Part shown: positions 343 to 48,335 of the stretch, one piece after another | Layout of the letters: the number at the start of each line of letters is the position of its first letter | Position numbering within the stretch: the first letter of the stretch is position 1 | Source: Mytilus trossulus | Lineage: Eukaryota | DNA: 64,000 nt | NCBI RefSeq assembly: GCF_036588685.1 | Contig: NC_086380.1 | Span: forward strand, 4,588,001 to 4,652,000 | Direction of reading: 5' to 3' | Program-made: the position numbers and the translations under genes | The notes under the pieces: model-generated | Databases searched by the model: none | Told to the model about the DNA's origin: nothing | What the model saw: the letters and a program-made list of their open reading frames with translations, nothing else

Positions 343-646
343 CTAACGATTTTCTAGTTCGATTTCCAGTCTTCTCATTTTTTCGACAACAAAACGGTAC
401 GATTTTTCCAAGCACTTCTTGAATGATTCATATTTGGCATCATCCTTGACGATCAATATACGAATCATACATTCAATCTTCTGTCTCGGCGTCTGTTGTA
501 TCTCGATATCCTCACTCTCAGCAGGGTCAAACGTTTTATTGGAATGAAGTTCATCTAGAATCTTTCCATCATCCAAATAAACATTATCATTTAAATATGA
601 GGTCTTCAATAACTCAATGAGAACCTTTTTGTGTAGCAGTTTCATT
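343..646 (-). CDS. CARD (death-fold) domain exon; either a ~100-aa CARD-only protein or the first coding exon of a larger CARD protein continuing left of the window
   Basis: MKLLHKKVL...LDDGKILDELHS...ESEDIE..QTPRQKIECMIRILIVKDDAKYESFKKCLEKSY fits the CARD six-helix pattern. Acceptor ttttgtag|a at 648-647 lies immediately before the ATG (645). A possible phase-1 donor C|GTTAGT at 348/347 overlaps the stop codon. Confidence 0.7.
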
Positions 647-807
647 CTACAAAATATAATTCTAAAGATTAAATAAACAAATTTCAGAAACATTAATATT
701 CTACTACAGTGTTTCCGATTTATCAAAGGTAAAGTGTTGTTTTGAGCGTTTTGATAAATCCGGCCTCACGACCATAAGTATAATTGCAGCAAAAAGCAAT
801 AGCTTTC

Positions 808-9949: not shown

Positions 9950-11366
9950 TTCTGGGGGCCGCAAAAAGTTAAAATTCTATATACAAACAATCTCAAATGT
10001 GAATAAGAAATTTCAAATTAAAAATATTTACGCTTAAAATTAAAGTCTCTGTATAGAAAATAATTACTGTCTCTGTATAGTGGTATTAAAATTTGACACT
10101 TGAACATTTTTAAATAACGATTCACAGTTCATATAAAAAGGGTAATTAACAGTTCACATTCGTTCTTTATCATCTCGATTTGAAGGCAGATTCAACCAAT
10201 TACGGATTCTTTCACCAGCCTTTACACTTGCTTGTCGTCTTGGACGAATGTCTTGTTTGGCACTTTGTTCACATGTATCATCTTTTTTCGTATTACATGT
10301 AATTTCGAGCGGATATAGTTTCACTATCGGCCATGTAGTTTCGGTATTCTTCATCCTTATTTTAGCGGCACGCACAAATCCATCGTTTCCTCGAAAAAGT
10401 TCAGTTACAAGGGCCATTTTCCAATTGATTCTCGTTGACTCATCGTGCACAAGAACAACGTCGCCAACTTTAATTTGTTCATTGTTATTTCCATATGCTT
10501 TGTGGTATTCCCTCAATGATGTTACATAGTAATTTTTCCATCTTGTCCAACGTGTCTGAATAATTCACTTTGTCGTTCATTTTGTTTATTTAGTGACGAA
10601 CAGTCCATAAACACGGGTTCACTGTTGTCCTGTTCTGAATGTGGATAGGATAACGATCTAATTTTTCTACCACATAATAGGTGCGATAAGTAAGTGGTTC
10701 ACTGTCGTTGATATTTGTGGAGGTGTATGCTAGTAGTCTGTCGTTCATTACACTTTCTACTTCCGTAACAATAGTGCACAAGGTTTGAAAATCGACCAAT
10801 GATTTTCGAGAACATTTTTTAACGTAGTTTTTGTTACTGCTATTAGTCTCTCCCAAAATCCACCATACCAGGGAGCACGATGCGGTATAAATCTCCACTG
10901 TACACCTAAATCTGCGATTTTATCTTGTACATTTTGCGATTCAAATATTCGTTTGATTTCTTTTGAAGCTGCAACAAAGGTCAGCGCATTGTCCGTTATA
11001 ACAACTTTCGGTGTAGACCTGCGACTTGTGAAACGAGGAAAAGCTTGCATAAAACATTCTGCTGATAAATTCGATAAAACCTCTAAATGTTCTCCTCTTG
11101 TTGACGCACATGTAAATAAGCACACGTATGCCTTAGTTATTTTATTGTGTTCATCCCTTACATGTAGTGCTCCTGTAAAGTCAATACCGGTCACAGTAAA
11201 TGGCGGTGCATCTTGACGTCGTGCTTTGGGTAAAGGCGGCGGATCCGGAGCCTTATACGAAGTTTCATTAACTTTAAGACATGCAGTACATTTACGTAAA
11301 ATCTTATTAACAAATTGACGAATACACGATATCCAAAAGTTTTGACGTAGATGCGATATGGTACTA

Positions 11367-11929
11367 TAGTCGCCGTCAGCTGAAATTCGTAGCGGTTATC
11401 GGTAAAAATAATCTAAACTATCAACCACGTTCACTCGAGATATAGTTTTTCACATTCCATTCATAAATCGCAAAAAGAAAAACCACTACTGACCTACCTT
11501 TTAAGTGATTGCACTGTGATAATCCTGACCTTCACATTTTCCAAGACTATTTTGAATGGTGGAATCCGCCATTGTTTTTTTTCCGGAAGTGTTCCCCTGG
11601 AGTTAAATTTCATAACATTTGCATAAAGCGCGGGAAACCGTATCACATCAATGAAAAGAACATTTCAGGAAACTGCGTAAATGACGAATTTCATATGTAA
11701 ACAAATGATCCTCATAGAAACGAAGATGGCGGAATTACAATGGAAAACATTCTGGAAAATGTGAAGGTCAGGATTATTACAGTGCGATCACTTAAAAGGT
11801 AGGTCAGTAGTGGTTTTTCTTTTCGCGATTTATGAATGAAATGAGAAAAACTATATCTCGAGAGAACGCGGTTGATAGTTAAGATTATTTCTACCGATAA
11901 CCGCTCCGAATTTCAGCTGACGGCGACTA
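11367..11929. mobile_element. Foldback MITE (563 bp, ~180-210 bp TIRs, TA TSD) inserted in the BEL integrase
   Basis: tagtcgccgtcagctgaaattcg...cgaatttcagctgacggcgacta, flanked by TA (11365-66, 11930-31). Removing it restores the frame HSGTSSTISHLRQNFW of the integrase Zn finger. Confidence 0.9.
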
Positions 11930-14900
11930 TACTAGTTCCTGAGTGTAGTACATGCTCGTGTGCATCTCGTACTATCAACATTGTTAGCTGTGTGTTTGTT
12001 GGTAACAAAATAGGAAATTTGGCGGACTCGGGAATCGGTGCATTTCTCTACATCGGATAATGTTGTTATGATCCAGAAATAAATTCAACTGACGAATTCT
12101 TGATACATTCTTTGTACGATCTCCTTTCACTAGCGTGTCGTATTCCTCGGGGTAGTTTAATATTTGGAATGACCTACTCCAATTTTGTGCTGACTTATGT
12201 ATTTCTTTCACATTACATGAACCAACTATTCTCTCTTCCTTTGATAATCTACAGTTTTGAATAAAACGTCATGCATATGCCGTCGTTCGTAATAGTTTCT
12301 TGTATGAAGAAAATCTGTCAATTTCCACTAAATCGTGAATTCCTGTCGTTCTATTCTCAAGTGTTGGTTGCTGGACATCAATGTTATCAGTCAATGTAGA
12401 TAGTACCGAGTTAACTTCAATCGTATGAACCGGGCGTTTCTATTATCCATGACGGACCATGCCTCCATAGCATGCTTTCGGTATATTGAGTGGCCGTTAT
12501 TCCGCGTGTAAGTATGTCTGCTGGATTTTGATCTGTTGGACAGTATCGTCATCTATAGGGTCTTGTTAACTCGTTAATTTCAGCTACACTGTTGCAATAA
12601 ATCGTTTTAGAGGTTTTTTCGACATCAGCCAATTCAATACTATTTGACTGTCAGACCATAATTCTACGTTGCTAATGTTTATAAACATGGATAAAATGTG
12701 TTGTGTAAGTCTCGCGCCATTTACAGCTGCAATTAAGTCTAACTGCGGTAGTGTTAAACTTTTAACCGGAGCTACTCTTGTTTTCGCCATAATCAATTTG
12801 GATTCATTCCCTTTGCAAAGATAGGCTATGTAAGCTTTCAAGCTGACATCAGAAAATACTTGTAGTGTTAACGATATGGTTTCGTTTTGTGTACCGGTAA
12901 AATAACGTCTCGGAAAAGCAGTATTGATTCTCTTTTGAATGTGTGTTGCGATGTCAATCCATGTTTCGCATAACTTTGTAGGTAAGATCTGATCCCATTC
13001 ATAGTTTTCGCGCCAAAGTTCTTGGAGAAATAATTTTGCTCTGATTGTGATTGGACTCAAGAGGCCTAATGGGTCATATATTTTCGACGATTGATTCAAT
13101 ATCACTCGTTTAGTGATATCTGTTTCCGCTGTTAAGTGAATTTCAGTTTGTGCAAAACAAAGTTCGTCTTTTTGTACATCCCAACGCATTCCTAGTACTT
13201 TCGGTTTGGTGTCCTTGTCAAGTATGTTATCAGCGCATGCTATTGTCCGTAAAAGCTGACTGTTCGATGTCCACGATCGGAGATTAAATCCACCTTTTGT
13301 AATAAATTCTCTGGCTTCTTTGTAAAACTGTACGGCTTTGTTCTCGTTAGTTACACTCGATATAATATTATCAACATATATGTCCTGTTCAATCATGTTA
13401 GCTCTGTCACTATTCTTTCCTTGAGTCTGCACATGTTTGAGTAGTGTTGCGCTCGGAATAAAGGGGGAGCATGTAGCGCCAAAAAGAACAGACTTAAAAC
13501 GATATGTTACCAATTTACTGTTTATGTTTTCTGCATCAGACATTCAAAAAAATCTTGTCGCATCTCTGTCATGTTCGTGTAAACCTACGTGTTAGAATGC
13601 CTTTACGATATCAGTTGAAATTGCGATGGCGTTTAATCGGAAACGCAATAATAGTTTTGTCAAGTCATTAAGAACGGGTGTTGTATTCATCAGACGGTCG
13701 TTTAAGCTCGGGTACTGATTAGATTGTCTACAACTACAATTGTAAACAATACGAATTGGTGTGGTTATCGAATCTTTCCTAACTGGGTGGTGCGGTATAT
13801 AATGTACTGTCGTTACATTCCTCATCATCGATTTTTTCAATGAAACCTTTAAGCTCTTGGTTCTTTATAATATCGTCATACGTTTTCAACATACCTGGTT
13901 CCCTGTCTAGCCTTCTTATTACAGATTTGGTTCTTCGTTTTGCAATACTAAAATTTGTCGGAAGTTGATCATGTTCTCGTTTCCATGGTAATTTTGCGAT
14001 ATATTGTCCGCCTTGAAATTCAATGCAAGTGTTCTGATATGTTTTTAAGTAATCTTCATTTTCTTGATCTAATTCTTTAGAGTTTATTCCCATTGATTCT
14101 AAGTTCCAGAATGATGCGATGTCGAACTCCTCGGTCTTATGCGAAATAAGCATTTGTAGTACTGACAGTGAGTATGTAGCCGACTCTTTGAACGGACCGG
14201 ATAAAAGGTAACCTAGCTTCGATTTAACAGCAGAAGGTCCATCTCCGCGAATGATTTTGTCTTCAATAAACTGCCAATAGTAATCTGCTCCTATCAATAC
14301 TGTAATTTCAAACATACTTTCGTCGGTAATCGGATGCGCCAAATTCAAGCCTTGTAAATAAATGTAGTTGTTTTTCGAGTCTAGTTTTCGGACATGATTA
14401 TGTAACGGAACGGCTATTTTCGGTACAACAAGAACCTCAATACGTATTTTCTGTCTCGTTTCTGTTTCTACCAATAAAGTACACTTACCTAAGTGTTGAA
14501 TGTTATTATCTGTGTCTCCGAAACAGGCCAGCTGTATTGTTTCTGTGCTGTAGATTTCAAGTTTTAGTTTTATAGCAAGATCTTCTGGTATGAACGAACG
14601 TTGTGCACCTTCATCAAAAAATATATTTGCGTCTAAAACTGTACTGTCGGACAAAACGGGTGCAACTGCTCTTTTCAGTAATACGCTTGAATGAGTCTTA
14701 TGAGAAGTGTGAAGAACTTTTGTGTCGTCTTCTGATTTTCCCTATTTATCATTAACAATGCTGACATTAACAGATTGTGATGATTTGGTAGAATGTGTTT
14801 TCGTGTTTTCCGTTTTCGTGACAAAAAGCGTATTGATGCATGGGAGCTTTACTTTGGACATGTGTACTTCTTTTATCGACCATTGACTCATTACATAAGC

Positions 14901-16102
14901 TAGTATGATGTTTTTTTCTTGCAATGACGGCATACATGTTTAGAGTTACATTCACTGGTACGGTGCGTACCGAGACAATTAAAGCACAGATTGCTGCGTT
15001 TTACAATATTCTTTCGTTTTTGTGTTTCTGTAATTCGTGTACAGTTCGTTGGTGCGTGAATTTCTTCACAGAATATACATGGCCTCGCGGTCAGAAAACG
15101 TTGGTTACTTTTTACATTAACGACTCTTCTTTGCGTATATTATTCCTTTCCGTAACTGGAAGATTTCGTTTCAGTGAGAAACGTACATGTAGGCGTTGCA
15201 TAACTTTGTGGGATACCGTAATCCTGACCTGCTTCGATAATATTAATCTCGTTCTGAATAGCTTTACGTAAATCGGATAAAATCCATGTGTTTGATCCAT
15301 AATCTCGTGCTTGATGTTGCCTTACTTCTCCGGGAAGCTTGCTCAAAATTATTGGGACTAGTAATGTGCCGTTAGTGTATTGCGATTGGCCTAATGCTTC
15401 CAATCCGCGTACGGATTCCTCTATGTGATCATAAAATAGGTGTACACTGGGTAAATTTGGTAGTGTAATGTCTAGCAAAGCTTTCATGTGTGCATGCGGG
15501 ATCTTACTAGATTGTCCGTATCGTTCTTTTAATACGTTAATTGCCTCCTTATAATTAGCATTTGTCAATGCGATTCCATCAACTGTATGCGAAGCTTCAC
15601 CTCCGAGTTGTGATTTAAATATAATTGAATTTCTGAATATCTGGTAGACTCGAGTTCATATGTACTGCTGATTCGAAAGAATCCCAGATGGTGCGATATA
15701 ACTCTGTTGCTGATTTTCAATACATGAAGTTGAAAACAAAAGCTGGTGCTTCATAATTTAATGTTTGATATGATGAAGTAGACTGCTGATTTTTATGATT
15801 TATCGAACTGTATTAACCCTGTATGAATATACGCAAGTGTTTTACTTTAGTTTCTAAACCTAAAGTATACTCATCTGTGTTGAGAATTTCTTCTTCAATA
15901 TCCTCTGCATCGATTGCACTTATAATTTGTTGATTCAAATCTTCTAAAAGGTTCTTCTTCTGTTCCACACTTTCTAATGTTACTTAAAGATCTACCCTGG
16001 CTAACTCCGCTTCGTTTTTCAAATCGTCGATTTTCCGTAAATGTCTTGTAACTACACTTTTTTTTCGCTTTCCTAATCGATTTCAGCTTATTCAAATCCA
16101 TT

Positions 16103-24191: not shown

Positions 24192-24408
24192 ATGAAAAGT
24201 AGGAAAATAAAAGAAATGAAAAAAATCAAATCAAAACATACTGGCAATGACAAAAATAGAAAATGTGAGTGCGGATTAGAGAGTATATTGCCTGAACTGT
24301 TACCATGGTATTTGTTCGTCATAGTACTGTGCATCAGAATTCATTATGTTCTTCAACCGAAAAACTGGTGGCTGCTTCATCCAGATGAAATATTCCAATC
24401 AGTTGAAG
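24192..24408 (+). CDS. GT22 (PIG-B/PIG-Z-like) mannosyltransferase, coding exon 1
   Basis: Basic N-terminus, TM helix, WWLLHPDEIFQSVE catalytic loop. Donor G|GTATGA at 24408/24409 (phase 1). An upstream acceptor ttttcag at ~24071 suggests a 5' UTR exon. Confidence 0.85.
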
Positions 24409-26295
24409 GTATGATATACATTTATTACTTCATAATTCATATACCGCACACGAGCAGTGCATTTGAAGTTTGCAAGACTCCGTAGTTGTTTATGGCATTA
24501 ATTTGTTTAAGCTATCAGTCTAAGATACTAGAATGCATTAAAGGGGTATAGGTAAGTTAGGGGTATATGTAAGTTACAGGGCAAATCGAAACGTGCAAGA
24601 AAATACTTATATGCAAATGACTTTCGTAGATTTACTAAACTATGGTACGTCAATTGAAAAATGATTGCTCTATTTCTCTATTTTATAATTTTGAAATTAT
24701 CACAGGTACAAATTCTTCCAATTTTTACTATCATTTGATAGTTTATAATCTATCGCAGTTACTGGTAATATATATATACAGAGAAGAAAGAAAAAAATAT
24801 TGTCGTAACTGTTAAGATTTGAGTATAATCATTTTGGAAGTAATTTAAGCATATATTACATTTTTCAGCTTACAAACATAAGCCTTTGTTATTTACGATA
24901 CACAAGAGACACCAAAAACTTAATGTAAAATTCAAAACAAGTTCTTTAACATGAATCCAAAAATCAATGCTTACAATGGATATATAAGAACATAATTTAA
25001 TGTAACTTTTTAACATAAAAAAGGACTAAGTTCGTACTATGTTCATTCTTTTTAATTGATAAATATCAAAGGTCGACCATACAATTGGTATTGAACAGCC
25101 GCTTTACATTTAATGGGTTTATATGTTAATGTACACAACAGGTTAATATTATTACTACAACTGTCTACATATTAAACTTTAAATACTCCAAAACTTAAAA
25201 GCATGAATTGGTATACAATTTTTTTTTATTGTTTACATAAACTTTATTGAAGTGAAAACTTTTAATTTTAATTGTCTTCTGCTGATCAATTTTATCTTAA
25301 AGAAATCTGATACCCATTCTAATCAGTTTGAATTGTGGGTTTTGTCAATCAAGTATGAATTTCTTTCATGTCGTATTAGTACATAAATAACTATTTGGAT
25401 AATACCAAAAAACAATATTACCACTGTTTTTTCTTCTTGCTTTTTGCTTATTTTCTCATGCGATACATTTTGAATCGGGTTTTTTTAAATAGTTCATTAT
25501 TCATGTTTTCCAAATGATACTGTAAGCACCTTTGAGAGTGCTTCGATTGGAATAGGATATCCTGCTTTTATGAATTTTTATTCTCTTTTTGCTGGTTTTC
25601 AAACTGCTAACAATCTCTTAGATGATTTACCTTAAATTGGTAATAATTAGTGGTACCAACCGATAGGAATTTAGATAAACTCATCAATAAAATTATGTAC
25701 GCCAGACGTTTTGTCTACAAGTACAAGACTCATAAGTGAAGTTCGAATAAATGTTGTTAAAAAGGCCAGATAGAAATACGAAGTTAAAGACAAGCTCTGT
25801 GGGTATACCATCGAAATCAAATCCTGGTAACATATATAAAAAACGTTTTAAAAAACTAATGTGGCAAACACGGCATTACTCTTAATATTTTATGTTTTAA
25901 TTAAATGTTAACGACTGAATGATACATCCTGAGTACTTAATTCAATCTATATTTTTATGGTATCACAATAATATATTATAACATTTCTTAATCCACGTTA
26001 CCGTTACATTAAAATTTGTGATTAAATCTTTCTTTTTAATTTTAACTGTACATAACAAAAAACAGTCACGACTGAAAAACGAGTATTGTCTTTCGAGAAG
26101 TTAATTCAATAGAAAGCTGTTTTCTTTTGTTTTTTTTTAAATTGTAGAAATTTTAAATCATTCATAGTCACAAATAATGAATTCAAAATGTTTAAATTAA
26201 AGGGTTTTGTTTAATTGGAAGTTTGTACGAATGTCTTATCCTTATTTATAAAATGAAAATAAGAACATGTGGTATGATTGCCAACGAATCCACTT

Positions 26296-26425
26296 AAACG
26301 CATGAAACGAGACCCCTAAAACGCCTGATACGAGACCATTAAACCGCCTGATACGAGACAACTGAAACGCCTTACACAAGACCAATTAAACGCATGATAC
26401 GAGTCCACTAAAACGCCTGATACAA
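26296..26425 (+). repeat. 22-bp minisatellite (aaacgcatgaaacgagacccct-like); second array at 28500-28645
   Basis: Visible tandem units in both duplicate copies. Confidence 0.75.
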
Positions 26426-28231
26426 GAAAATTAATTGAGGGTATATGATTGATAAGGTATGAGCATGGATGATAAAATAAAAGTTTTAAAAATAAAAGTG
26501 GGAATTCATCTAGAAAGAAAAAAATTGTGGTCATTTGGCGGACTTATGTCCATTTGCACAATATTCCAAAGCTTGCATTTCCTGTCATGGGTTCTTTGAT
26601 AAAGGTCTGATGCTAACGAGGAATCTATTGAACTAAAGGTTCCAAGTGGTAAGGTTGTGGTCATCACAAGTTACTAGTTCGGTATTTAGCCTGAATGATT
26701 TCCTAATCCACAACGGTCACTAATAACAAATAGAGACATTACTTTTGTCATAAACTGTTAAGACTTGACTATAATTATGTTTGAAGTAATATAAGCATAC
26801 ACACAGTTATTTTTGTGATTTTACTTTTTAAAAACATAAACTTTTGTTTTTGACGATCTGAAAGAGACTCCAGAAACTTAAAGTAAATACAAATCTTTTT
26901 ACATGAATCAAAAAATCATCCATACAATAGAAACATAAAGAGCATACTTTGATATAAACTTTTTAATATAAAAAAAAAAGGACTAAATTCGTACTGCATT
27001 TCTTCTTTTTAATTGATAAATATCAAAGGTCGACCATACAATTGGTATTGAACAGCCGCTTTTCATTTAATGAGTTTATATGTTTATGTACACAACAGGT
27101 CAATATTATTACTACAACTGTCTACATATTAAACTTTAAATACTCCAAAACTTAAAAGCACGAAATTGGTATACAAAAATTGTTATTGTTTACACAAACT
27201 TTATTGAAGTGAAAACTTTTAATTCTAACTGTCTTCTGGTGATCAATATTATCTTAATGAAATCTGATACCCATTCAAATCAGTTGTATTGTGGGTTTTG
27301 GCAATCACGTATAAATTTATTTCATGTCGTTACTATTTGGATAATACGTAAACAACATTACCATTGCTTTTTCTTATTGTTTCTCTCGTGAATTAGTCTA
27401 CGAACGTAAAAAAATATCTGCTTTTTTTTAGTGTATCTGTGATAATTCTGCAATCAGCTGAGATCGGTTTCATTTTGAATGTTAGTTCTCTGTTAGGTAA
27501 TATGTCCATGATGACATTGCACCTTTCAATACCGCACACAATTCATAACCGTTTGAAATTCAATTTTTTTTTAATAAATCATTTTTGAAAGCCAAAGTAT
27601 TCACAAATGAGTAAATGATTAAAAGCTTGAAATAGTGTAAGAAAATCGGTCTTTTGTAGAGTATAAAGTAAGGGAATGCGTTATGATTCCCAATGAGACA
27701 AATGCATATTTCATGTTGCTTCAGAAATAAACATAAATATTGGTTATTGTTCTTCTTCAAATGCTGTCTATTTGAGAGAGGAACGAAAGATACCAGATAC
27801 CAGAGGGACATCCCCTTTTATTTAATTGATATTTGGAGTACAAACTGGTAACGAATAGTTGTTACAAACCGAAAGATTTTAAATATACTCATTGAAATTG
27901 TTTGTGACGTTCGAATAAAATAAAAGTTAAATGACCACAAAAAACACGAAGTTTAAGACAAGCCCTGTGGGTGTATAGTCGAAAATTTTAAAAAATACCA
28001 TAAAAAAAACGCTTCAAAAAACTTGGGTGGTAATCACTGCATTACTTTTAAAATCTTATGTTTTAATTATTAGTTTACTTAATAATACTCCTGAATCCTT
28101 AATTCAATTGATATTTTAATGATATCACAATAATTTAGTATAACATTTCTTTACCATAGCATTTAGATTTTTTGATGAGATCTTTTGAATGTTTCACTGT
28201 AGAAATAAACAATCTTAACTAAAAAACGAGA

Positions 28232-28296
28232 ATCTTATGTAGACGAAAAGCGCGTCTGGCGTATTAAATTATAATCTTGATACCTTTGATAACTAT
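28232..28296 (+). mobile_element. 5'-truncated retrozyme insertion (3' half of HHR plus terminus)
   Basis: tcttatgtagacgaaaagcgcgtctggcgtattaaattataatcttgatacctttgataactat; absent from the paralogous site (~26080-26095) in duplicate A. Confidence 0.8.
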
Positions 28297-29444
28297 AGAT
28301 TTTCGAGAAGTCAATTCTATAGAAAGTTATTTTCTTTTGTTTTCTTAAATTGTTTGAATTTTAGATTATTCGTAGTCAAAAATAATGAAATCCATCTGTT
28401 GAAATTAAACGTTTGTTTTTAAAATGGAGGTTGTACGAATGTCTTATCCTAGTTCATAAGAAAAAATAAAACATGCAGTATGATTGCCAATGAGTCAGCT
28501 AAAAGCCTAATAGAAGACGAGTAACACGCATGAAACGAGACTACTAAAACGCCTAAACCGAAACCACTAAAACGCATGAAACGAGACCCCTAAAACGCAT
28601 GAAACGAGACCACTAAAACACCTGAATTGAGACCACTTAAACGTCGAATAGTCTTTTAACAAGTCGATAAAGACAGTTTTTGCGTTTTTCCCTCAAATCA
28701 AAAGACTTTGAAGGCTCATAGTAAACTCATTTTTAAAGACATAATCAATATTTATCACCTGATATCTTACTTGCGGACATCAAAGTACTGAAGCGGGATT
28801 ACAATAGTTAAGCCTTTTCGAATCAATATATGGACTTGGTCGTACATCTGCCTCAGTAGAATTTGGATGTTGTCGCGAGGTTGCATGTGTTTTTATCGTT
28901 GTTCTCATATTAAATTATTGTTTTTGTTAATTGTTCATGTGAGTCCTACGTGGATAGACAATATAAGTTATTAATAAGTGTGTCTGTCGTCTGCTTTTTT
29001 GCCTAAGTTTTAAACAATGATATTTGTGGTGCGTCTTGTCTGTTGTCAATTGAAGAAGATATGTCATCTGAAATTCAATTAAAATATGAACGAAGTTGAT
29101 ATTATCAAGTTGTTTATGTTTCAATTTTATTAAAGATTCAAAATTAAAATCAATTATTGTATTTTTATTAAACAAAAATCATGTATTATTTAAATTTTCT
29201 ACCTAAAATCGATTAAATTGATAAGCAACAATGGTTTATTTGTGCAGTCTCTCAGTTGAGGAATGTTTTCTTTTATTTGTTGAATTCATTACAATTGATC
29301 CTTTATTTGATCGTACAAATCAAAGTATAATTTAGACTTCAAATTGAATTGTACAAAGAAAATTGGTATCAACTAATTTGTCGCGAAACGAGGAAAATAA
29401 TAAAAGTTAAAAGAATGAACACCTAGCAGTTTATCATTCGCCCA

Positions 29445-29662
29445 AACTGCATACGCTTAAATCTAAAATGAACTAAATTTCGTATACCAAAAAAAAAAAA
29501 AGAATAAAATAGTAAGAGTTTTTCATTTCAATTGATAATTTGTATGGTTTTTTTTACAAAAAACATACAAATTATCAATTGAAATGAAAAACTCATACTA
29601 TTTTATTCATTTTTTTTTGGTGTACGAAATTTAGTTCATTTTAGATTTAAGCGTATGCAGTT
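29445..29662. repeat. Near-perfect inverted repeat (~105-bp arms, almost no spacer)
   Basis: aactgcatacgcttaaatct...ttgtatg / catacaa...agatttaagcgtatgcagtt. Confidence 0.9.
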
Positions 29663-31248
29663 CTATTATTTTTTTACAAAAAAACATGACATGAATAATA
29701 ATAATCATTTATTCATATGAACAACCTGGTGATTCTCTTTTTTCCATTATTTTACATCACAATGCACTCAGGTTGCTTGTGTTCGCAATCAAAAATGATA
29801 TGTGTTTTTAAGCAATAAAGGACTTTTTAAGCAAGTTTTGTCTGCATCATACATTTCCATTTTTGACAGTTAACACATTGTATATTACACACTTAAAAGG
29901 CATGTAACATCGGTCAACCTCTCATTTCCATTTAACTCATCACAATCATACAGTATTTAAAAGCTGTTCTAATTAAAATGCGTGACCTCTAGATGTCCTT
30001 CGACTGTTTGTGCCGTTGAATTACCGTCTGATTGAGGAGTATCCAACATTTCCTTTTATTCCTCTTTTAAATCACACCTATATTGTATGTTGACCTTCAT
30101 GGTAAATGGTACTACTTTCCCCCTTACATTAGAGTGCAAAGTAAATACACCATCCTGAACCGGCCTTACAGGTGACGATAACAGTAAATAAAATGCCACA
30201 CCTGTGTTGCCATTCCCGTGGTTTTTTTTCGTAAATTTTGAAGAAAAGCAGGCCACTAATTGGTGCATTTTGATACCTTTCACCTCAATTGTTGGTAAAA
30301 ATTCTATCAATTATGATTAAATTAATTTTTTTTTAATTACGAATTGATTCATTTGAAACAGTTTCTCTTTCAATAAATATTTTTAGAAACTACATCGCTG
30401 CTTTAAGTAACCATATATCGATTATTTAAATAGATATCTTACTATCAGTAAAATACTATTGTTACAATTATACGGTAAATGATTGATGACTTTAATGGCT
30501 TTTGTCTATTAGAACATTGCTGACTGGGTTGTTTCGTCAAATGAATATTGATATCGAAAATAATTTTATCAAGTGTGAAGCGGGCAAAGAGTATCAATAC
30601 AGACCTGTAAATAACAAACCAAATGTCTTTCAATGGCGGAATTGTATATGTTTTATAATTGATGTCTTTTGCAGCCGATTGATTTCACTATAAGTTATAG
30701 GTATACCAAATTTAGCAATGAACTAGCATTTATATCCTCATTAAAGTCATGAAGGTGCAATGCTTCGTTGGTAGTTTTAAATGCGTCAACTTTCCACATA
30801 TTTAGCGACTATGCTCTTTTATTTTGCAATGCATTTTTAAGTATTTTTGTCTTTACAGTTGGTAGCCATATCATTAAGTTAAATGATTGAATAAACATTC
30901 ATCTAGCATACGAATATAAATTTACATTGGGAATAAACTAATTATGTGTTCATAAAGGAAATGTACGGTGAGTCAATGAGTCAACAATCCAAATACACAA
31001 ATAATGCAAAAAATATATAGATGTCAAAGGGGCTGTCTAGCTAATGTAAAAGGCTGTAAATCGTCCAAGCTACAATTGAGTTGGAAATGAGTTTAACAAA
31101 GAGTTTTTCAAGTATCTACATTAAGCACGAATTTCATTGAAGAAAAGTATAGCTATAACTTCATAACTATATAAAATACGCGTGTGTGTCTGTGTTTGTT
31201 ATTTAACTGTTTATTTTACACCATTTCTAAATTTTGTTTATTTTACAG

Positions 31249-31445
31249 TTGCTTTTTCTGAGGTGTACGGACATGGATTCAGAACCTATGAGTATAGTCC
31301 ACCCACGATAAATGTAACAACACCGGTCGAAGAACAGGAAATGAACCAGGGAATGTACAGTTTAAGATCTTTTCTCTACCCACAATTCTTTGCTGTGATT
31401 TTTGCCGTCTGCAAGTTCGTTGGGATACGTTTGAATTGTTATTTG
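31249..31445 (+). CDS. GT22 mannosyltransferase, coding exon 2
   Basis: Acceptor ttttacag|TT gives V-AFSEVYGHGFRTYEY...LRSFLYP (PIG-B-like). Donor TTG|GTAATT is phase 0. Confidence 0.85.
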
Positions 31446-32168
31446 GTAATTATAACTATCGATGTTCAAATTCAAGTGTCTTCAATTTTGTTATGGTATA
31501 AGTAACTGAGACGTAGAACTGCATACCGATTTTTTGCAAATATAGATTATTAGGGTTTTTAGATAATTATCATCAGTTACAAACAAGCTTAATCGATGTA
31601 TTGTAACTGTTTATTCATCTCATGCACCCGCTGGTTTTTAACGGGAACCCGTTTGGTTATTCCTTCAACTGACTGACATGAGCAGCATTGAGGGACCTAA
31701 AGTTTAACTTGCAATTTATCTTAAAAATGTAATGTTCGTTGTTACAAATGAAAATTGTATGAGGTTTTTTAAGATATATATGTGTTCAGAAAGGGACTTT
31801 ATGCATATGAGAGTATACAACAGAGGACATCAATAATATTCAGTTTGATCTTTATTTAGCAAATAATTGAAAACCAGAAATATTACTTCTCTTAAATGTA
31901 TTGAAGGACTTATCTACCAGCCTGATCAGAAATTGCAATACAAGCGTCGTCAAAAATCAGTTCGTCGGTTTTCTCTTTTGACTGGTTTCACATGTTGTCA
32001 AACCGGGGCCTTTTTTTAGCTTACTTTACGGTATGTGTTTTGCTTATTGTTGAAAACCGTACGGTAACCTATAATTTCTTATATCCACTTCATTTCTTTA
32101 TTTCATATAATTTTCATTGAGACTTGTATATGTATCAATTAGGTGTATTCTTCGTATTTTAATTTCAG

Positions 32169-34112
32169 GTTGGACGTATTTGTCAGTGTGTAGTGACGTC
32201 ATTTACTCCAGTAGCTGTGTTCAGATTCTGTAGGACTTTATTTAGGTGTAGAGGAACTGCGTCCCTAGCGGCAATATTAATTTCATTTTCATTACATATC
32301 TCGGTCCTTGGAACACATACATTGGTCAATAGTTTTATTTCTCCATTCTTATTTCTTTCATTAGACATCATTTTGCAATATTTATTAAAACCTCTGGACA
32401 TTACAGATTTTGCAAACGACAAAAGTTTAAACGAAAGCAGTTCGTCACGGTACAATCATACAGAAAATGGAAGCGCTCCAATACAATGTGCCAAGCGCGA
32501 TATCAATAGTAATTTAAAGACTCCGAAAAATCCATTGAATAGTGCAGCACCTCAAGAGCAAAAACAATCAACAGAAGATGGTAAAATAGTTAAAGCAGCA
32601 AAAACAAAGAAAGGCAAACTGAAACAGAACCATTTAACAACCAGACACTTTACATTGGATATAGATTTAATTGTATTAAGTCTATCTGGTTTTGTTTGTG
32701 CAATAATTTGTTACATGAGGCCTGACACTATCATTTTTCTTATCGTAATTGGCGTCTCATTTCTATTTACATATCGAGATAAAGTATCAATTAAAAAAGT
32801 CGTATATTTAACTGGCACAGTTGGATCAGGTTTTGCAACGGGTTTAACAGTTGGGGGTTTACTCGACTGGTACACATATGGTGTGATGTTTATTTCGCCA
32901 GCTCAGTGGTTGAAGTTGAATGTAGCTTCACATGTTCCCGCTGTATTGTATGGAAGCAATAGTCCATATCAGTATATTTTAGACATTTTTGCCAGCTGCA
33001 ATTCCGAGTTGTGCTTTAACATTTTCTGTCTCGCCGCTTTATTAACTATGATGACTCAAACTGAGTTTATTGACTCAGGGGATCAAAAGTCAACTTCTAG
33101 TCTATTAATAACTCTGTCATTTATGCTTATTATTTATTCAGTAATCGCGCATAAGGAATTAAGATTTGTTCATAACGTTTTAATCATTGTTGAAATTTTA
33201 GCAGCGTACGCAATTCACGGGGCTTTGCAATTTATAAACAGTTTGTTAAAATTTACCAAAGATAAAATCAGAATCGTTGTAATTGTCTTCACGTTAACCG
33301 TAGGTCTCAATACTTACATGAATTTTCCTTCATATGGCGAAGAAACCATCCTGCCATGGAAAACGGTTACACCAGCCGATTCTTCAGATATCAACCAATG
33401 CTTGTTCTTTATAAGTGAACAAAACAATGTAACAGGAGTATTCGTTGACAATTCCATTTACACGATTGCGGGATTTACCATTTTGAATCACGACGTGCCA
33501 TTGCTTACTTTAATTCACCATGAATACCACGAATATAGGAGCGAAGGGTATATACCACGGACTGATCTCAGTTATAAGACACCGCGAAACTTATATGTCA
33601 TCAACCGATACTCTGATATCATCGATGTGACTAATATTCACTATTTATCGAAACGTTTACTAGAAAGTCAAGAATATAATTATGTTGTTGTCCCCAACAA
33701 GAGAGTCCCGTCTTTTAGTCAACTTGGTTTCAATAAAGCCCCGTTTAATGCAGGAAGATATTCCGTCTTACAGAGATTATTGACGCCGATCGAATCTTCA
33801 AAATTGTCAATCGCTGGAAAAAATATGCCACTTGGTAAGAACTCTACCATTATGGAATATGAAGCTAGTTGGTTGTACACAGCAGGATTATATTCGAAGG
33901 CTATAGAACGTTTAGAAAATGCTATAGAACTGAACAATTCAAGAGTACGCCCATTCCAATTGCTTGCTTCATCGTATGCAAATAAAGCTGACTTAACAAA
34001 TGCAAAGGCCACAGAAGACAAATGCATTCTAGGCCATGGTCGAACTGCATGTCGGAAACCCCAGCCAAGAATAGTGATTCACGAGGACTATAAACAGTAC
34101 AGTGTTAATTAA
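32169..34112 (+). CDS. GT22 mannosyltransferase, coding exon 3 (multi-TM body, luminal domain, TPR-like C-terminus); spliced product ~785 aa
   Basis: Acceptor aatttcag|GTT is in frame with the 639-aa ORF. Motifs: YMRPD, LLDWYTYG...WLKLNV, SPYQY, HKELRF; multiple TM helices. Total CDS 217+197+1944 = 2358 nt. Confidence 0.85.
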   Translation, partial: VGRICQCVVTSFTPVAVFRFCRTLFRCRGTASLAAILISFSLHISVLGTHTLVNSFISPFLFLSLDIILQYLLKPLDITDFANDKSLNESSSSRYNHTENGSAPIQCAKRDINSNLKTPKNPLNSAAPQEQKQSTEDGKIVKAAKTKKGKLKQNHLTTRHFTLDIDLIVLSLSGFVCAIICYMRPDTIIFLIVIGVSFLFTYRDKVSIKKVVYLTGTVGSGFATGLTVGGLLDWYTYGVMFISPAQWLKLNVASHVPAVLYGSNSPYQYILDIFASCNSELCFNIFCLAALLTMMTQTEFIDSGDQKSTSSLLITLSFMLIIYSVIAHKELRFVHNVLIIVEILAAYAIHGALQFINSLLKFTKDKIRIVVIVFTLTVGLNTYMNFPSYGEETILPWKTVTPADSSDINQCLFFISEQNNVTGVFVDNSIYTIAGFTILNHDVPLLTLIHHEYHEYRSEGYIPRTDLSYKTPRNLYVINRYSDIIDVTNIHYLSKRLLESQEYNYVVVPNKRVPSFSQLGFNKAPFNAGRYSVLQRLLTPIESSKLSIAGKNMPLGKNSTIMEYEASWLYTAGLYSKAIERLENAIELNNSRVRPFQLLASSYANKADLTNAKATEDKCILGHGRTACRKPQPRIVIHEDYKQYSVN

Positions 34113-36328: not shown

Positions 36329-37730
36329 ACTTCAACTTCAACTTTTATTAACACTCTAGACAGTTTACACTGTAACAAGAGGCAGACAAATAATACAAGT
36401 AATAATTAACAATGGTGAACAAGATAGAAAGAAATATACATACATAGTTCATGATACCTAATTATCTGTACACAAGTTTACACATACAAAACACGTGATA
36501 ATCATTCAAAGCTATAATAATGGGATCTGAGATCGCCAGTCGATTACATGTAAGTGATAATATATAGAATCATAGATATTTCATAAGTTTTTTTATAAAA
36601 ATAGACAAGTTATTTAAGACTTTTACATTACATAAAGACAACAAACCTTTCATTTTATATTCTGAAGGGTTAACAATATAGTAATTTGGGATATATGCAC
36701 GTCTTAATTTTTTAACCTCGTCATTTTGACATACAAATAAGTAATGAAACTGATTTCCAATACAATTTTTTTTGCACAAAGTACATAGTCTTTCCTCTTT
36801 TGGAATATTATGCCATCGACCAGTTTCTAGTGGAATTTTGATATTTGAGCATCTAAGTTTGGTAATATATATTCTATTTTCTTTTTTTAATTTTACCAAA
36901 TAATTTTCTAAACAAAAAGCGTGTTTAAACAGTAAATAATATCCACCTCTAGAAGAGTTTTCAGCATCACTAAACCACTTTTGAATAAACTGATCTTGTA
37001 AAATTTGCTTTACATATATTTTGATGTCAACATTTCTTAAAATACATTGATTGTTCCATACATAGCTTAAACCTGTGTTATCTAATGTAGATTTAATACA
37101 ATTAATCCACTTAGAAACAATATTTCCAGAATTATGCATTTTATACAAAAATTGGTATAATAATCCTGATAATTTCGTGCTGTTTAACAATAATTTTGAC
37201 CAGAATGATAAAATTCGTAATCGTACTTTAATTTCCAAGGGATACGTGCCAGTTTCGCCGTACACCATATAATTAGGAGTACTGCTTCTTAATGAAAGAA
37301 TTCTTTTCAAAAATTTTAAATGAACTCTTTCTAAAGCATCTATGTTTTCGAAACCCCATACTTCACAAGAGTAAATCAGTATGGGTTCAACCAAAGAATC
37401 GAACAATTTTAGTTGCAAATCAATAGGAATATTTAAATTCCTTATTTTTCTGTAGAGAGCATAAAGTGCCTTTTCTGCTTGTTCTATCAATTTTTTTCTG
37501 GCATTTGTAAATCTACCGTTACAATTAAACAGCAAGCCTAGATAAGGATAAAAATCTACTATTTCAATATCAGAACCATACAATTTAAAATCATGTAAGT
37601 GGTTTCTTTTGCTTTTTCTTTTTGAAAATATCATAATCTTTGTCTTATCTGTGTTCACAGAAAGTTTCCATTGTGTACAATATAATTCAAACATATCTAA
37701 TGTATTTTGCATATCACTTGCTGTTTCAGC
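36329..37730 (-). mobile_element. 5'-truncated LINE (CR1/RTE-X-like group), RT C-terminal 380-aa ORF plus 3' UTR
   Basis: ORF 36570-37712: WKLSVNTDKTKIMIF, YLG, PILIYSCEVWG, KLRCSN..IPLETGRW..ERLCTLC...FHYLFVC. The 3' end has AATAAA and a (GTTGAA)n tail at ~36329-36349. Confidence 0.85.
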
Positions 37731-38207
37731 ACAGTGTGGTGCGCACTGAATAACCCGCGTAGCGTGTTATCTAGAAGTGTGCACCACATTTTTGAGTTTA
37801 TTCCGAATAGACAGAAAAAATATTACATTCATTCCTTATAATTTAATTCTAAATTCCATCTTTTTAAGGAGTCAATCACGAAAAAAACGTTGATGACCTC
37901 ATCACGGCCACATGACAAAATTATGTCTATGGGCTGATAGACAAAAAACTTTCAGTCAATCAGAAGACGTGTTACATCCAAATCAAATTATTCTTTATCG
38001 TTGCCATTTTCCATGTCAGCTTTAAATGTTTAAGCAATCAAAATGCTAAAATTTAAATTTATTTATATCTTTGTATATTGTTACGTTTTGAGTGAGAACA
38101 TAAAAAAAATGAAATGCATATTGTTTTTGTTGTACTGTTGATTATATTTTACAAAATTAATTATTTTGCATCAATTAATATAATTGGGGCATTCAAAGTG
38201 TCTATGT

Positions 38208-42136: not shown

Positions 42137-42250
42137 TGTCATGTATTGTGTTCCATACTTATGTACTAAACGTCATGTATCAGAGTTACTCCCCTTTAGT
42201 TATTAAAGCATTGTTAGTCGGCCATTGTTGTATTCTTGACGTACACCACA
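42137..42250 (+). repeat. 5' LTR of Steamer-like element
   Basis: TGTCA...CCACA; identical to 46359-46472 except one C/T. Confidence 0.95.
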
Positions 42251-42263
42251 TGGTGTCAGATGT
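42251..42263 (+). promoter_or_regulatory. Primer-binding site (tRNA-Leu)
   Basis: TGGTGTCAGATGT versus the canonical TGGTGTCAGAAGT. Confidence 0.8.
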
Positions 42264-45200
42264 AAAACTTGTAAAATGGAGCAACTAAAGCCTCCAGGAA
42301 CACTAAATTTGGAAGGGAATTTAGCTGAAAACTACAAAGAATGGATTCAGTCATTCGAACTTTATCTTACCGCAACGGGAATTGAAGAAAAGTCAGGGAA
42401 GGTACAAGTGGCTACTTTTCTGCATGTCGCAGGCTCTGTACAACGTGTTTATAATACTTTTGACATTGTTGCGGATGATAAAGAGAAAATTGATGTACTT
42501 AAAGATAGATTCAAGGGTTACTGTGAGCCGAGAAAGAATCTCACGTACATTCGTCACGTTTTCTTTACCCGAAATCAAGGACCACATGAAAACATAGATA
42601 GTTACGTCACGGATCTAAAGAATAAAGCTAAACCATGTGAGTTTGAACATTTATCTGATGGCTTGATTAGAGATCGTATCGTTTGTGGCATACAAAACGA
42701 AGGTTGCCGAGCCCGGCTTCTACGGGAAGCGGATTTAACATTAATAAAAGCAATAGACACATGTCGTGCACAGGAAATAAGCTCACAGCAGCTAAAATCA
42801 TTAAAATCTACTGAGGAACATTCGGTGAACGCCGTGAAACAGGTCAGTAAATCTAGATATAGACAAAATGACAGTCACAAAAATCAAAGATCTGTGCATG
42901 TAGAGAGACAGGCTCTATGTAAAAATTGTGGCAGAACACATGGTAAACGGAATTGTCCAGCGTTCGGTAAAGAATGTCATTCATGCAATAAGAAGAACCA
43001 CTTTGCTAAATATTGTATGTCAAAACAAAAGAAAAAAGTAGATGCAATTCAGTATGATTATTACGACAGCGAAGATGAACTTTTCATTGGAACAGTTAGT
43101 GTAGACAGTGTTCAACAGTGTGAAGAATGGAAAGAATCTATGTCAATAAACAACCAGTGCGTAGTTTTTAAACTTGATACAGGAGCTCAGGCGAATATCA
43201 TATCAGAAAAACTATTTCGTAAATTGTCGTTGCCGGATAACAGGACCGAGAAGACCAATATTAAACTTGTAACATACGATGGACACAAAATATCACCGAT
43301 TGGTACTAGAATGTTAAAGTGTACATTCAAAGACAGAAAATACAATTTGAATTTTTTCATAGTACCGACCGATTCACAGCCAATATTGAGTGCCGACACG
43401 TGTAGCGAAATAGGAGCCATTGTACGAGTGCGCGCCGTAGATAAACCACTGACAAAAGAAGAAGTAATAAGTGATTATGGTGAAACATTTAAAGGACTAG
43501 GTACATTGCCTAAAACACATCATATTGAAGTAGATCCTCTGATTACGTCCGTATTTCACCCGCCTCGTAAAATTCCAGCAGCACTGCGTGATCAAGTCCG
43601 AACAGAATTAGACCGTATGGAGAGCCTCGGTGTCATCGCAAAACAGGACGAGCCGACCGATTGGGTTCATAGTATGGTAGTAGCTAGGAAACCTGGAAAA
43701 CTACGCGTGTGTATAGATCCGAAAGATTTGAATCGTGCGATCAAGCGTGAACATTATCACTTAGAAACAATTGATGAGATTGTTGAAAGATTGCTTAAAG
43801 CAAGTGTCTTTTCCCGATTTGATGCAACACATGGATTCTGGCAGATTCGTCTTGACGAGGATAGTTCAAAACTATTAACTTTCAATACGCCATTTGGACG
43901 TTATCGATACCGTAGATTACCGTTTGGTATAAGTTCCGCACCGGAAGTCTTCTCGAAAGCTGTCCGAGAAATGTTTGTAGACCTTCCGGGGGTCGAATGT
44001 ATCGTTGATGATATTCTTGTTTGGGGAGAAAATGATGAACAACACGATGACCGCGTTCGTAAGATGCTCAACAGATGCCAGCAAATGAACTTTAAGCTAA
44101 ATAAAGCGAAATTTGAGTTGCGCGTACCGGAAGTCCATTACGTTGGACATGTTATAAGCAAAGACGGCTTAAAAGTTAATCCGGAAAAGTGCGTGCCATA
44201 CAAGAAATGCCAACACCGACCGATGTGGCAGGAGTTAAAAGGTTCCTTGGTATAGTACAGTATTTGGCCAAGTTCATACCTAATCTATCAGATGTGTCCG
44301 ATCCGCTCCGTAAATTGCTAAAAGGTGACATACAGTGGCATTGGGATCATGAGCAACACCAAAGTTTCGAAGAACTTAAGCAGTTAGTATCGTCAGCTCC
44401 CGTGTTACGATTCTATAATGTGAATGAACCTGTAACTATATCAGTTGATGCAAGCTCAAAAGGTCTTGGAGTTGTACTTCTTCAAAATAAACAGCCCGTG
44501 GCATACGGATCCAGAGCTCTCACCGAGACGCAAAGTAGATATGCGCAAATCGAGCGTGAAATGTTAGCAATCTTGTACGGTTGCGAAAAGTTTGATCATT
44601 ATATTTACGGTCGCCGAGCCGTTATTGAAACCGACCATAAGCCGTTAGTTGCAATCTACGACGAACCGCTTTATCGAGCTACACCACGTTTACAACGCAT
44701 GTTAATGAAACAACAGCGATATGATTTACGGATTGTGTACGTTCCCGGAAAACTTATGTTTATATCCGATGCACTTAGCAGAGCCTATCTACCGGATAGC
44801 AATGACAAACTTATTGATGATGAACTTGATATTAGTTACATTGAAAAACAACTACCTATTTCGTCTAGAAAGATAGCGGAAATCAAAGTCGCGACCGAAG
44901 CCGATGAAAATCTAAGAAAGTTAAGTTCCGTCGTTGTGTCAGGATGGCCAAACAGTAAGGAAATGTTACCCGATGACATTCAGTCTTATTGGAATTTCAG
45001 GGATGATTGATGGACTACTTTACAAAAGCCAACGTATATTCATACCTAAATCACTTCAACGAGAGATGTTAGTGAAATTGCACGAAGCACATCTTGGTAT
45101 TGTTAAGACAAAACAGCGTGCCCGTGAAATACTATTCTGGCGTAATATGAACAGTGATATTGAAAACTTCATTAAAAACTGTAGCATATGTAACAAGTTT

Positions 45201-46358
45201 AGAAAGGCAAACTGTAGAAAACCGCTCAAATCTCATGATATTCCGTCGCGTCCGTGGACAAAGTTAGGAGCAGATTTACTGGAGTTCAAAGGAAAGCATT
45301 ATTTACTTTGTGTAGACTATTACTCTAAATATCCAGAAATTGCATTGCTTCCGTCATTGTCTAGTGTATCGACAATTTCAGCATTTAAGTCCATGTTTGC
45401 CAGGCATGGTGTTCCGTCAGAAGTTGTAAGTGACAACGGACCGCAATTTGCGTGTGCTAATTTCAAGAACTTTTCACATGAATGGGACTTTATTCACACA
45501 ACTTCAAGTCCACGTTATGCTCAATCCAACGGAGAAGCTGAACGGTATGTACAAACAATTAAGGATATGTTCAAGAAAGCTGAAGAAGGACAAAGTGACA
45601 TTTACATTTCCTTAATGGAGTACCGTGGATCTCCTATCGAAGGAGTAGGACTTTCACCCGCACAGTTGTTGTTTAACCGACAGTTGAAAACAAAACTTCC
45701 CATGTCAACGGAACTTCTCGAGCCGAAAGCTTTTGGATCAAAACAAAAAGAACTAATGGAACGTCAAAAACGTCAAAAACACTACTACGACAAGACGTCA
45801 AAACCGTTACCGAGTGTTGCGCCAGGAGAAATTGTCCGCTTTAAGAAAGATGATAAAAGTACTTGGGAACCAGCAATAGTTGACACAGAACACAGTAAAC
45901 GTTCTTATGTGTTACGCGCCGGAAATGATAAACTTTATCGACGAAACGAAAACACATCTTAAAAACCAACGAAAAAGTGTTTAACAAGGACAATTCACAA
46001 AATGACCTTGAGTTTCCAATGGTGGACAATTCAATCGACCGCGAACCGCCAACAGTAAAAAATCACGATCAACAAGAAACACAAAATCAAGCTTCCGCGC
46101 CGACCGATCCGACAACTGTAACAAGATCTGGACGCATCTCAAGGAAACCAGTGTACCTCACAGAACACTTTGTGTGAAATACAAAAACTGTTAAATTGTT
46201 CAATTCAGTAGTTAATAGTAGTTAGTTACATTTTTCTTAAATTTTCTAGTCAAAGAAAGACATTAATTTTTAAGAATAATTGATATTCAAATTGTTTAAT
46301 TTAGTAAATAAGAAATAGACATTTTGAGAACGAACTTTAAAAACTTTAAAAAGGGAGA

Positions 46359-47889: not shown

Positions 47890-48314
47890 TTAAATCTTGT
47901 ATATGAGAGCACCCATGAATGAACTCGAACTTCCGGCATCGTAGTCAAAACCATTTCCTATGTAAGAATCACCAGTCTGTATCCACACGTGCTCATTCTT
48001 AGCTACTCTACAAATAGCAGTTTTGCTGACCGATACATGTCCAACAGCCATACCGAGACTTGCATGGAGTGTTGCCTTGACAACATTGTCTACTCGTAAT
48101 TCAGTACTAATGGATTTCCCACTGTAGGTAAGCATTGTCCAGGAAAATAAGTAAACGCCAGTAACAGGTGAAACAAAAACACTGTCTCCATGGTTAAAAA
48201 TATTTCCATCAGTGTTTAAAATACTGCTAAATTTCACAATGGAGTTTTTGTTGTAATCTACTTGAGCTGCAGGCATCTTTGCATGGAAGAAAACCGGCTC
48301 GTTCATCTTAGAAT
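47890..48314 (-). CDS. C1q-domain-containing protein, globular C1q exon (last exon)
   Basis: PVFFHA...IVKFSSILNTDGNIFN...VFVSPVTGVYLFSWT...EHVWIQ...SSFMGALI*. Acceptor tgtttcag|AT is phase 1. Confidence 0.9.
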
Positions 48315-48335
48315 CTGAAACAAATATAGATATAA

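Follow-up and report, generated by a model that had tools for sequence, protein, structure and literature searches.

Does the glycosyltransferase family 22 (GT22) gene on the forward strand of the 64,000-nucleotide stretch of Mytilus trossulus DNA studied here (hereafter the window, whose own numbering is used for all coordinates without a C prefix) encode one of PIG-B, PIG-Z, ALG9 and ALG12, or something else? The question was raised by an initial annotation of the sequence, which described an atypical mannosyltransferase with motifs of several of these enzymes and a C-terminal tetratricopeptide repeat (TPR)-like module, and suggested a separate lineage. GT22 is the family of membrane-bound sugar transferases at work in the assembly of GPI anchors and N-glycans. 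We find that the window gene is an intact, spliced GT22 gene, and the comparisons below place it in a fifth animal lineage of the family, older than its TPR module.

Gene structure and family membership

Joining three exons yields an open reading frame (ORF) of 785 amino acids with no internal stops, close to the length first estimated, and its translation is identical to the database protein LOC134728150 (uncharacterized, Mytilus trossulus). Splicing is seen in contigs assembled from public runs, where the intron 1 joint appears in three of four runs, the intron 2 joint in two of four, and a single 1312-nt contig covers all three exons; the RNA status of these runs is only guessed, and they show a few percent of divergence from the window. 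The whole protein matches the GT22 profile PF03901 with 106.4 bits against a curated cut-off of 23.8 (E 2.7e-30). Exon 3 alone still reaches E 2e-21, and exons 1 and 2 by themselves give no Pfam match. The features of the gene are as follows, with sidedness relative to the membrane and residue roles as predicted in the next sections.

24192..24408, forward strand: coding exon 1 (217 nt, residues 1-72), with the basic cytosolic N-terminus, the first transmembrane helix (TM1) and the beginning of luminal loop 1, where the putative catalytic D65 lies
24384-24386, forward strand: codon of D65, putative catalytic base, aligning with the D82A position of ALG9 chain 9s6s
24409..31248, forward strand: intron 1 (6840 nt, phase 1, GT..AG)
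31249..31445, forward strand: coding exon 2 (197 nt, residues 73-138), with the remainder of luminal loop 1 including R112
31365-31367, forward strand: R112, predicted donor-phosphate ligand, aligning with ALG9 R112
31446..32168, forward strand: intron 2 (723 nt, phase 0, GT..AG)
32169..34112, forward strand: coding exon 3 (1944 nt, residues 139-785 and stop), with TM2-TM11, the luminal domain and the TPR cap
32388..32645, forward strand: hydrophilic insert (residues 212-297) between TM4 and TM5, predicted to be cytosolic and disordered
32718..32720, forward strand: R322, predicted donor-phosphate ligand, aligning with ALG12 R185
33150..33173, forward strand: H466-H473 motif, in which R470 aligns with the donor-phosphate ligands ALG9 R370 and ALG12 R312
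33324..33824, forward strand: luminal alpha/beta domain (residues 524-690), with the fold of the ALG12/ALG9 luminal domain and sequence likeness to the Asgard proteins
33843..34052, forward strand: two TPR repeats (residues 697-764, 33843-34046) and a Cys pair, preceded by the sequon N696 and closed by C757/C766, predicted to be luminal

Intron 1 contains a diverged tandem duplication (24800-26420 and 26745-28625, pieces 72-82% alike), a 218-nt inverted repeat at 29445-29662 and high-copy repeats near 26188-26571 and 28108-28491.

Separation from the four canonical enzymes

A PF03901 search of the M. trossulus genome returned 14 matches at seven places, which correspond to the window gene, two paralogues and four canonical-type genes. 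The PIG-B gene lies at C1:60.65 Mb, and one of its exons matches a protein named GPI mannosyltransferase 3-like at 100% identity. The PIG-Z-like gene (C3:75.2 Mb), the ALG9-like gene (C3:17.97 Mb) and the ALG12-like gene (C1:10.71 Mb) were named from motifs and, for the latter two, which are multi-exon, also from likeness to the ALG9 and ALG12 structure chains. A long array of approximately 51-nt tandem repeats was noted at C1:10.72-10.73 Mb, upstream of the ALG12-like exons located, which do not include the first ones of the gene. The two paralogues, at C8:2.738-2.749 Mb and C8:2.781-2.792 Mb, are 1.8 Mb away from the window gene and bring the lineage to three copies in this genome; they share 80% identity with each other, and 29% with the window gene, and have the same three-exon layout and TPR cap.

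The profile scores separate these groups clearly. Against the profile of the window family, 15 PIG-B proteins score 39-72 bits, the PIG-Z-like ORF 7 bits and the best single exons of the ALG9-like and ALG12-like genes about 15 bits; in the other direction, the PIG-B profile gives the window protein 54 bits, compared with 753-1041 for PIG-B proteins. Whole-chain phmmer comparison of the window protein with the ALG9 and ALG12 chains yields E values of only 0.08 and 0.14. Orthology to PIG-B is thus excluded by the 54-bit score, the separate gene on C1 and a position outside the PIG-B clade (support 100/100). PIG-Z is excluded by the separate C3 gene, which pairs with PIG-B at 100/99 (with one long-branch PIG-Z row only), and ALG9 or ALG12 as the gene's identity by the ALG9-like and ALG12-like genes elsewhere in the genome. 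By these sequence comparisons, the window gene belongs to a fifth animal lineage of GT22, which stands apart from PIG-B and PIG-Z in the trees and from ALG9 and ALG12, which the trees do not include, by profile and locus, so that the lineage proposed at the outset is upheld.

The origins proposed along with it fare less well. Retroposition had been suggested by the small number of introns and the large third exon, but both intron positions are common to the window gene and its two 29%-identical paralogues, and a very large coding exon, of 563 codons, occurs in the PIG-Z-like gene too. Recent horizontal transfer finds no support either, as GC content at third codon positions is 0.33, within the range of 0.25-0.34 given by three further GT22 ORFs from this genome, and members occur in six invertebrate groups.

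Predicted fold

The AlphaFold model of the window protein (mean predicted local distance difference test, pLDDT, 74.6) is closest to ALG12 (9s6t), with a Z score of 26.6 and a root-mean-square deviation (rmsd) of 4.0 over 440 aligned residues spanning model residues 36-677. ALG9 (9s6s/9s6u) matches with Z 20.3 and rmsd 3.9 over 462 residues, and ALG9 and ALG12 also fill the top three Foldseek rows. Counting helices on the model against ALG12 landmarks, we predict 11 membrane helices in a GT-C(A) fold followed by a luminal C-terminal domain, as in these two GT22 enzymes, with the N-terminus and insert cytosolic and the active site, alpha/beta domain and two-TPR cap luminal. Identity in the structural alignments is about 15%, and the window protein differs in adding the long cytosolic insert and the TPR cap. 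A separate model of residues 524-785 reaches a pLDDT of 91.5; a wide fold search with it was swamped by TPR matches and returned no ALG9 or ALG12 row for the alpha/beta part, which is not evidence against the likeness to those enzymes.

The insert, first described as about 80 hydrophilic residues, is disordered in the model (pLDDT below 50 across residues 215-299) and poorly conserved, with a mean identity to other members of 11% as compared with 26-43% in the remaining regions. Its length ranges from 0 to 366 residues (median 79) in animal rows, as against 3-40 residues in the rows of Asgard, bacterial, PIG-B and PIG-Z proteins.

Active site

Conservation was counted over 121 animal-clade rows of at least 480 amino acids, with denominators giving the rows that cover each site, and the matching to ALG9 and ALG12 residues assumes a six-residue offset in chain numbering. 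D65 is kept in 49/51 rows, R112 in 47/55, R322 in 111/116 and R470 in 111/115. In PMC13503287 the matching residues are the catalytic base and donor-phosphate ligands of inverting transferases that use dolichol-phosphate mannose (Dol-P-Man). The window copy retains all four, and its active site looks intact on this alignment. A fifth residue, H181, aligns with the acceptor-pyrophosphate ligand H140 of ALG12 in a weak stretch of the alignment (3.5 bits) and is His in 66/110 rows. Degenerate active-site words were seen in the animal members P0010, P0109, P0118, P0119 and P0137, possible pseudo-enzymes.

The motifs HPDEIFQSVEV, YGHGFRTYEY...LRSFLYP and HKELRF are all present as first quoted, and the protein has in common with PIG-B and PIG-Z (GPI mannosyltransferases 3 and 4) the DE catalytic motif, the loop-1 words and the HKE.RF words. 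Their proposed mosaic origin must be given up, since the DE..Q..E and HKE.RF words are found in 12/12 aligned Asgard or Asgard-like proteins; the alignments indicate that the motifs are ancestral. What sets the lineage apart from PIG-B and PIG-Z is a His at position 188 (111/115 animal rows) in place of the Arg of all 15 PIG-B rows, PIG-Z and most Asgard rows, an Asp in place of Thr at 324, and a His followed by Asn or Asp after RF, the His being H473, which is found in 109/115 rows and marks the lineage. Y320, D324, P382 and W385 are common to the lineage and the Asgard rows, not to PIG-B.

The C-terminal TPR cap

Is the C-terminal module really a TPR? Residues 697-764 superpose on the consensus TPR structure 2avp with Z 12.2 and rmsd 1.3 over 68/68 residues, TPR proteins make up most of the 50 rows in the fold search with the C-terminal model, and consensus TPR proteins are also picked up by the family profile, at its positions 695-747. 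The Pfam TPR match is weak (E 0.009 on the last 110 residues, below cut-off), and no Pfam TPR family is found on the whole protein at E 0.05. For helical repeats a Z below about 13 can reflect a common arrangement, according to the caution given with the fold tool, but since sequence pattern and fold agree we accept the assignment. The modelled TPR is real but short, with two repeats covering slightly more than the stretch first pointed out. It is present in 104/121 animal rows and 0/12 Asgard or Asgard-like rows. E703 and A716 are near-invariant, as is a Cys pair (C757 in 101/102 rows, C766 in 100/100) that likely forms a disulfide, and the N-glycosylation sequon at N696 is found in 79/109 rows; the sequon and the Cys pair fit a luminal location of the C-terminus.

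This architecture had been compared with that of the TMTC protein O-mannosyltransferases. The comparison holds in so far as TMTC1-4 (GT105) also have an 11-TM GT-C body followed by luminal TPRs, and fails in that the window protein matches GT22, has no DUF1736 match and carries two TPRs as opposed to about ten (PMC7801869). The likeness is architectural only and likely convergent.

Taxonomic range and origin

How widely is the lineage distributed, and where might it come from? A single-protein search found 26 relatives, of which the 12 named are all molluscs, and a search of 1.84 billion representatives gave 181 matches, 150 of them listed. Cluster look-ups supplied names for 6/10 and 5/8 animal-clade queries, adding Centruroides, Branchiostoma, Priapulus, Tubulanus, Strigamia and more molluscs, so that the named relatives among the matches listed span molluscs, a nemertean, a priapulid, scorpions, a centipede and amphioxus. 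The Branchiostoma member (P0110) is annotated as an ankyrin-repeat fusion, perhaps a gene-model merge. No vertebrate, insect, nematode, fungus or plant is among the named matches listed, most matches being nameless and no direct search for absence having been made. In the weak tail of the matches listed, 23 were inspected and 10 clusters and two more proteins looked up, none of them named PIG-B. A second profile search brought no further animal taxa, most of its matches being relatives of its first row.

The next-ranking relatives after the animal clade are unnamed sequences and proteins of Heimdall-, Hod-, Hermod- and Thorarchaeota (names of clusters or contigs), followed by bacteria. The animal profile gives four unnamed rows 129-221 bits, named Asgard rows 160-231 and bacteria 25-109, which makes these uncharacterised Asgard GT22 proteins the best-scoring named non-animal relatives. 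In profile-profile comparison the match of the family to the Asgard set (E 1.3e-67) extends over 483 columns, the luminal domain among them, while the match to PIG-B, at E 3.7e-21, covers 326 columns of the membrane part and leaves the luminal domain unmatched. The Asgard proteins differ in having no TPR, a short insert or none, and mostly Arg at 188. A TPR-less relative, P0151, is encoded on a 2073-nt single-ORF contig that ends in poly(A), and is thus likely a eukaryotic mRNA. Within the Asgard phylum 36/251 sampled genomes have a match at E 1e-10 or better, a count that includes a second clade of Asgard GT22 proteins (three rows, L078-L080), which groups with bacterial proteins, not with the window lineage. 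The genes around the Asgard relatives form no common glycosylation cluster or pathway, and the neighbours vary by lineage. In several Heimdallarchaeota contigs, as distinct from Hodarchaeota-type loci, the GT22 relative is directly followed by a 359-residue ORF, whose L040 copy matches the sulfotransferase family PF13469.

We built unrooted trees from hand-picked sets of 33 and 43 rows, from which fragments below 480 amino acids, near-duplicates, ALG9 and ALG12 were left out. In the 43-row tree the animal clade (100/100) is joined by six eukaryote-like rows at 99/96, deeper by two unnamed prokaryote-like rows at 99/96 and then by twelve Asgard rows at 100/98, with PIG-B and PIG-Z on a separate branch (100/99). 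The 33-row tree gives the same picture, with the animal clade (100/100) apart from PIG-B and PIG-Z. An approximately unbiased (AU) test on 33 rows does not reject a single clade of the family, PIG-B and PIG-Z (p 0.088), nor does it with unnamed rows added (p 0.134, 33 rows). Because of this, and because the trees are unrooted and without ALG9 and ALG12, the nesting of the lineage among Asgard proteins is our best estimate and not a result; such a link may reflect vertical descent or ancient transfer, between which the data do not distinguish.

The presence of TPR-less relatives in eukaryote-like transcripts and Asgard archaea does indicate, at the level of the sequences compared, that the lineage is older than the TPR-bearing animal clade. 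Its description as invertebrate-specific can thus be retained for that clade, whose named members are all invertebrates, but not for the lineage as a whole. A broader scenario, tentative and taken as a whole rather unlikely, would have a luminal mannosyltransferase of an Asgard ancestor, independent of PIG-B, PIG-Z, ALG9 and ALG12, retained by some microbial eukaryotes and across many phyla of invertebrates and capped with TPRs in animals, where it would serve an undescribed mannosylation pathway of the endoplasmic reticulum (ER), possibly on proteins.

Proposed function and alternatives

What would a protein of this kind do? The reading we favour, with a probability of about 0.5, is that this fifth-lineage GT22 protein is an inverting transferase of the ER lumen which takes mannose from Dol-P-Man and attaches it to a hydroxyl of a sugar in a lipid-linked glycan. 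By analogy with the ALG9 and ALG12 structures, D65 would act as the base, R112, R322 and R470 would hold the donor phosphate, and the product would be an alpha-linkage. More tentatively, the donor sugar would be mannose, and the acceptor might be a glycan branch outside the products of the four canonical enzymes, either an extra branch on a glycosylphosphatidylinositol (GPI) or lipid-linked oligosaccharide or a mannose-containing glycolipid. The TPR cap, gained in animals, might dock a partner or carrier protein rather than define the chemistry, given that the active-site words are the same in relatives without a TPR.

A lipid-linked acceptor is favoured because the GT22 enzymes characterised so far take their mannose from Dol-P-Man and act on lipid-linked acceptors (PMC6801728), because the ALG12-type glycan-binding luminal domain is kept, and because H181 weakly aligns with H140. 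Since each of the four canonical steps is covered by a gene of its own, the product is likely a branch or glycolipid not made by vertebrates and yeast. Bivalve glycolipids with a Man-alpha1,3-Man core (PMC3606520) are only a lead for the acceptor, and a literature search on mollu-series glycolipids found no paper.

Several observations weigh against this reading. The active site differs from that of PIG-B and PIG-Z, on the alignments, in having His at 188 instead of the conserved Arg, and H181 is absent from 44/110 animal rows. The fold is also near to enzymes with other acceptors, since STT3 (Z 22.2) and ArnT (Z 22.1) fall between ALG12 and ALG9, at higher rmsd, and Pmt4 is matched with Z 19.4. 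The absence of ALG9 and ALG12 from the trees counts here as well, and a luminal TPR, as modelled, fits a protein acceptor at least as well. For the glycolipid lead in particular, elongation of glycolipids is usually a nucleotide-sugar process of the Golgi. The oyster glycolipid listed in PMC3606520 is without the mannose core, though an oyster carries a family member (P0010, with a degenerate motif).

The possibility of a protein acceptor deserves the most attention among the alternatives, although we consider it unlikely. The enzyme would glycosylate proteins either directly on Ser/Thr, as TMTCs do, or by capping a protein-bound glycan, as does archaeal AglS, for which Dol-P-Man is the donor of a mannose added to a protein N-glycan (PMC4973528), and the luminal TPR pair would hold the substrate. 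This would agree with the predicted luminal side of the cap in 104/121 animal rows, with the near-invariance of E703, A716 and the Cys pair, with the TMTC precedent of 11 TMs and luminal TPRs (PMC7801869), and with the H188 and H473 changes, which separate the active site from that of PIG-B; ESM Atlas neighbours, a lead only, include bacterial clusters combining PMT and TPR. On the other hand, there are two TPRs as compared with about ten in TMTCs, no DUF1736 match was found among 24 proteins scanned at E 0.05, and the fold is nearest to ALG12 and ALG9, including the luminal domain, rather than to Pmt. The fact that TPR-less relatives also have H188 and H473 means that the changed site predates the TPR.

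Less probable by some way is that the window gene is a diverged, partly redundant PIG-B/PIG-Z paralogue making the ordinary GPI mannose linkage in some tissues, with the Asgard affinity a tree artefact. The AU test leaves room for the joint clade, the DE motif is as in PIG-B and PIG-Z (PMC6056205), and the PIG-B profile does match the family. Yet the match to the Asgard profile is much stronger and extends through the luminal domain, Y320, D324, P382 and W385 side with the Asgard rows, and the lineage has been kept and expanded alongside intact canonical genes in several phyla. We regard as similarly improbable another lipid-phosphate sugar donor (glucose or rarer) or, for several copies, a role as non-catalytic lipid-glycan binders, for although the sugar is not readable from sequence, the donor mannose is not itself resolved in the ALG9 and ALG12 maps (PMC13503287) and five members have degenerate motifs, the window copy has all four key residues and the characterised GT22 members are all mannosyltransferases (PMC6801728).

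Other features of the window

Broken remnants resembling long terminal repeat (LTR) retrotransposons lie on both sides of the gene, and two of the remaining ORFs encode immune-type domains common in mussels.

343-765, reverse strand: ORF with a CARD domain
10150-15655, reverse strand: LTR-retrotransposon-like remnants in several frames, with a DUF1758 match at 13779-14741
36570-37766, reverse strand: 398-codon open frame that matches no Pfam family at E 0.001, presumably resembling the C-terminal part of a LINE-type element
42240-45962, forward strand: LTR-retrotransposon-like remnants in several frames, with protease and reverse-transcriptase matches at 42240-44255
47890-48423, reverse strand: ORF with a C1q domain

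Significance

The GT22 family and its fold are already known, whereas neither the lineage nor its TPR cap or Asgard neighbours turned up in the literature searched. Database labels of members read only "uncharacterized" or "mannosyltransferase", and no description of the clade was found by title or abstract start in mostly non-subscription literature, where trees in supplements may include it. GT22 is presented as four eukaryotic enzymes in the human table of PMC6801728. The lineage implies a dolichol-dependent glycan without assigned enzyme or structure in molluscs, arthropods, priapulids, nemerteans and amphioxus. According to PMC4973528, the luminal N-glycan transferases seem to be confined to eukaryotes and have no more than very distant relatives among prokaryotes; a fifth lineage with close Asgard relatives would offer a handle on the origin of glycosylation in the ER lumen.

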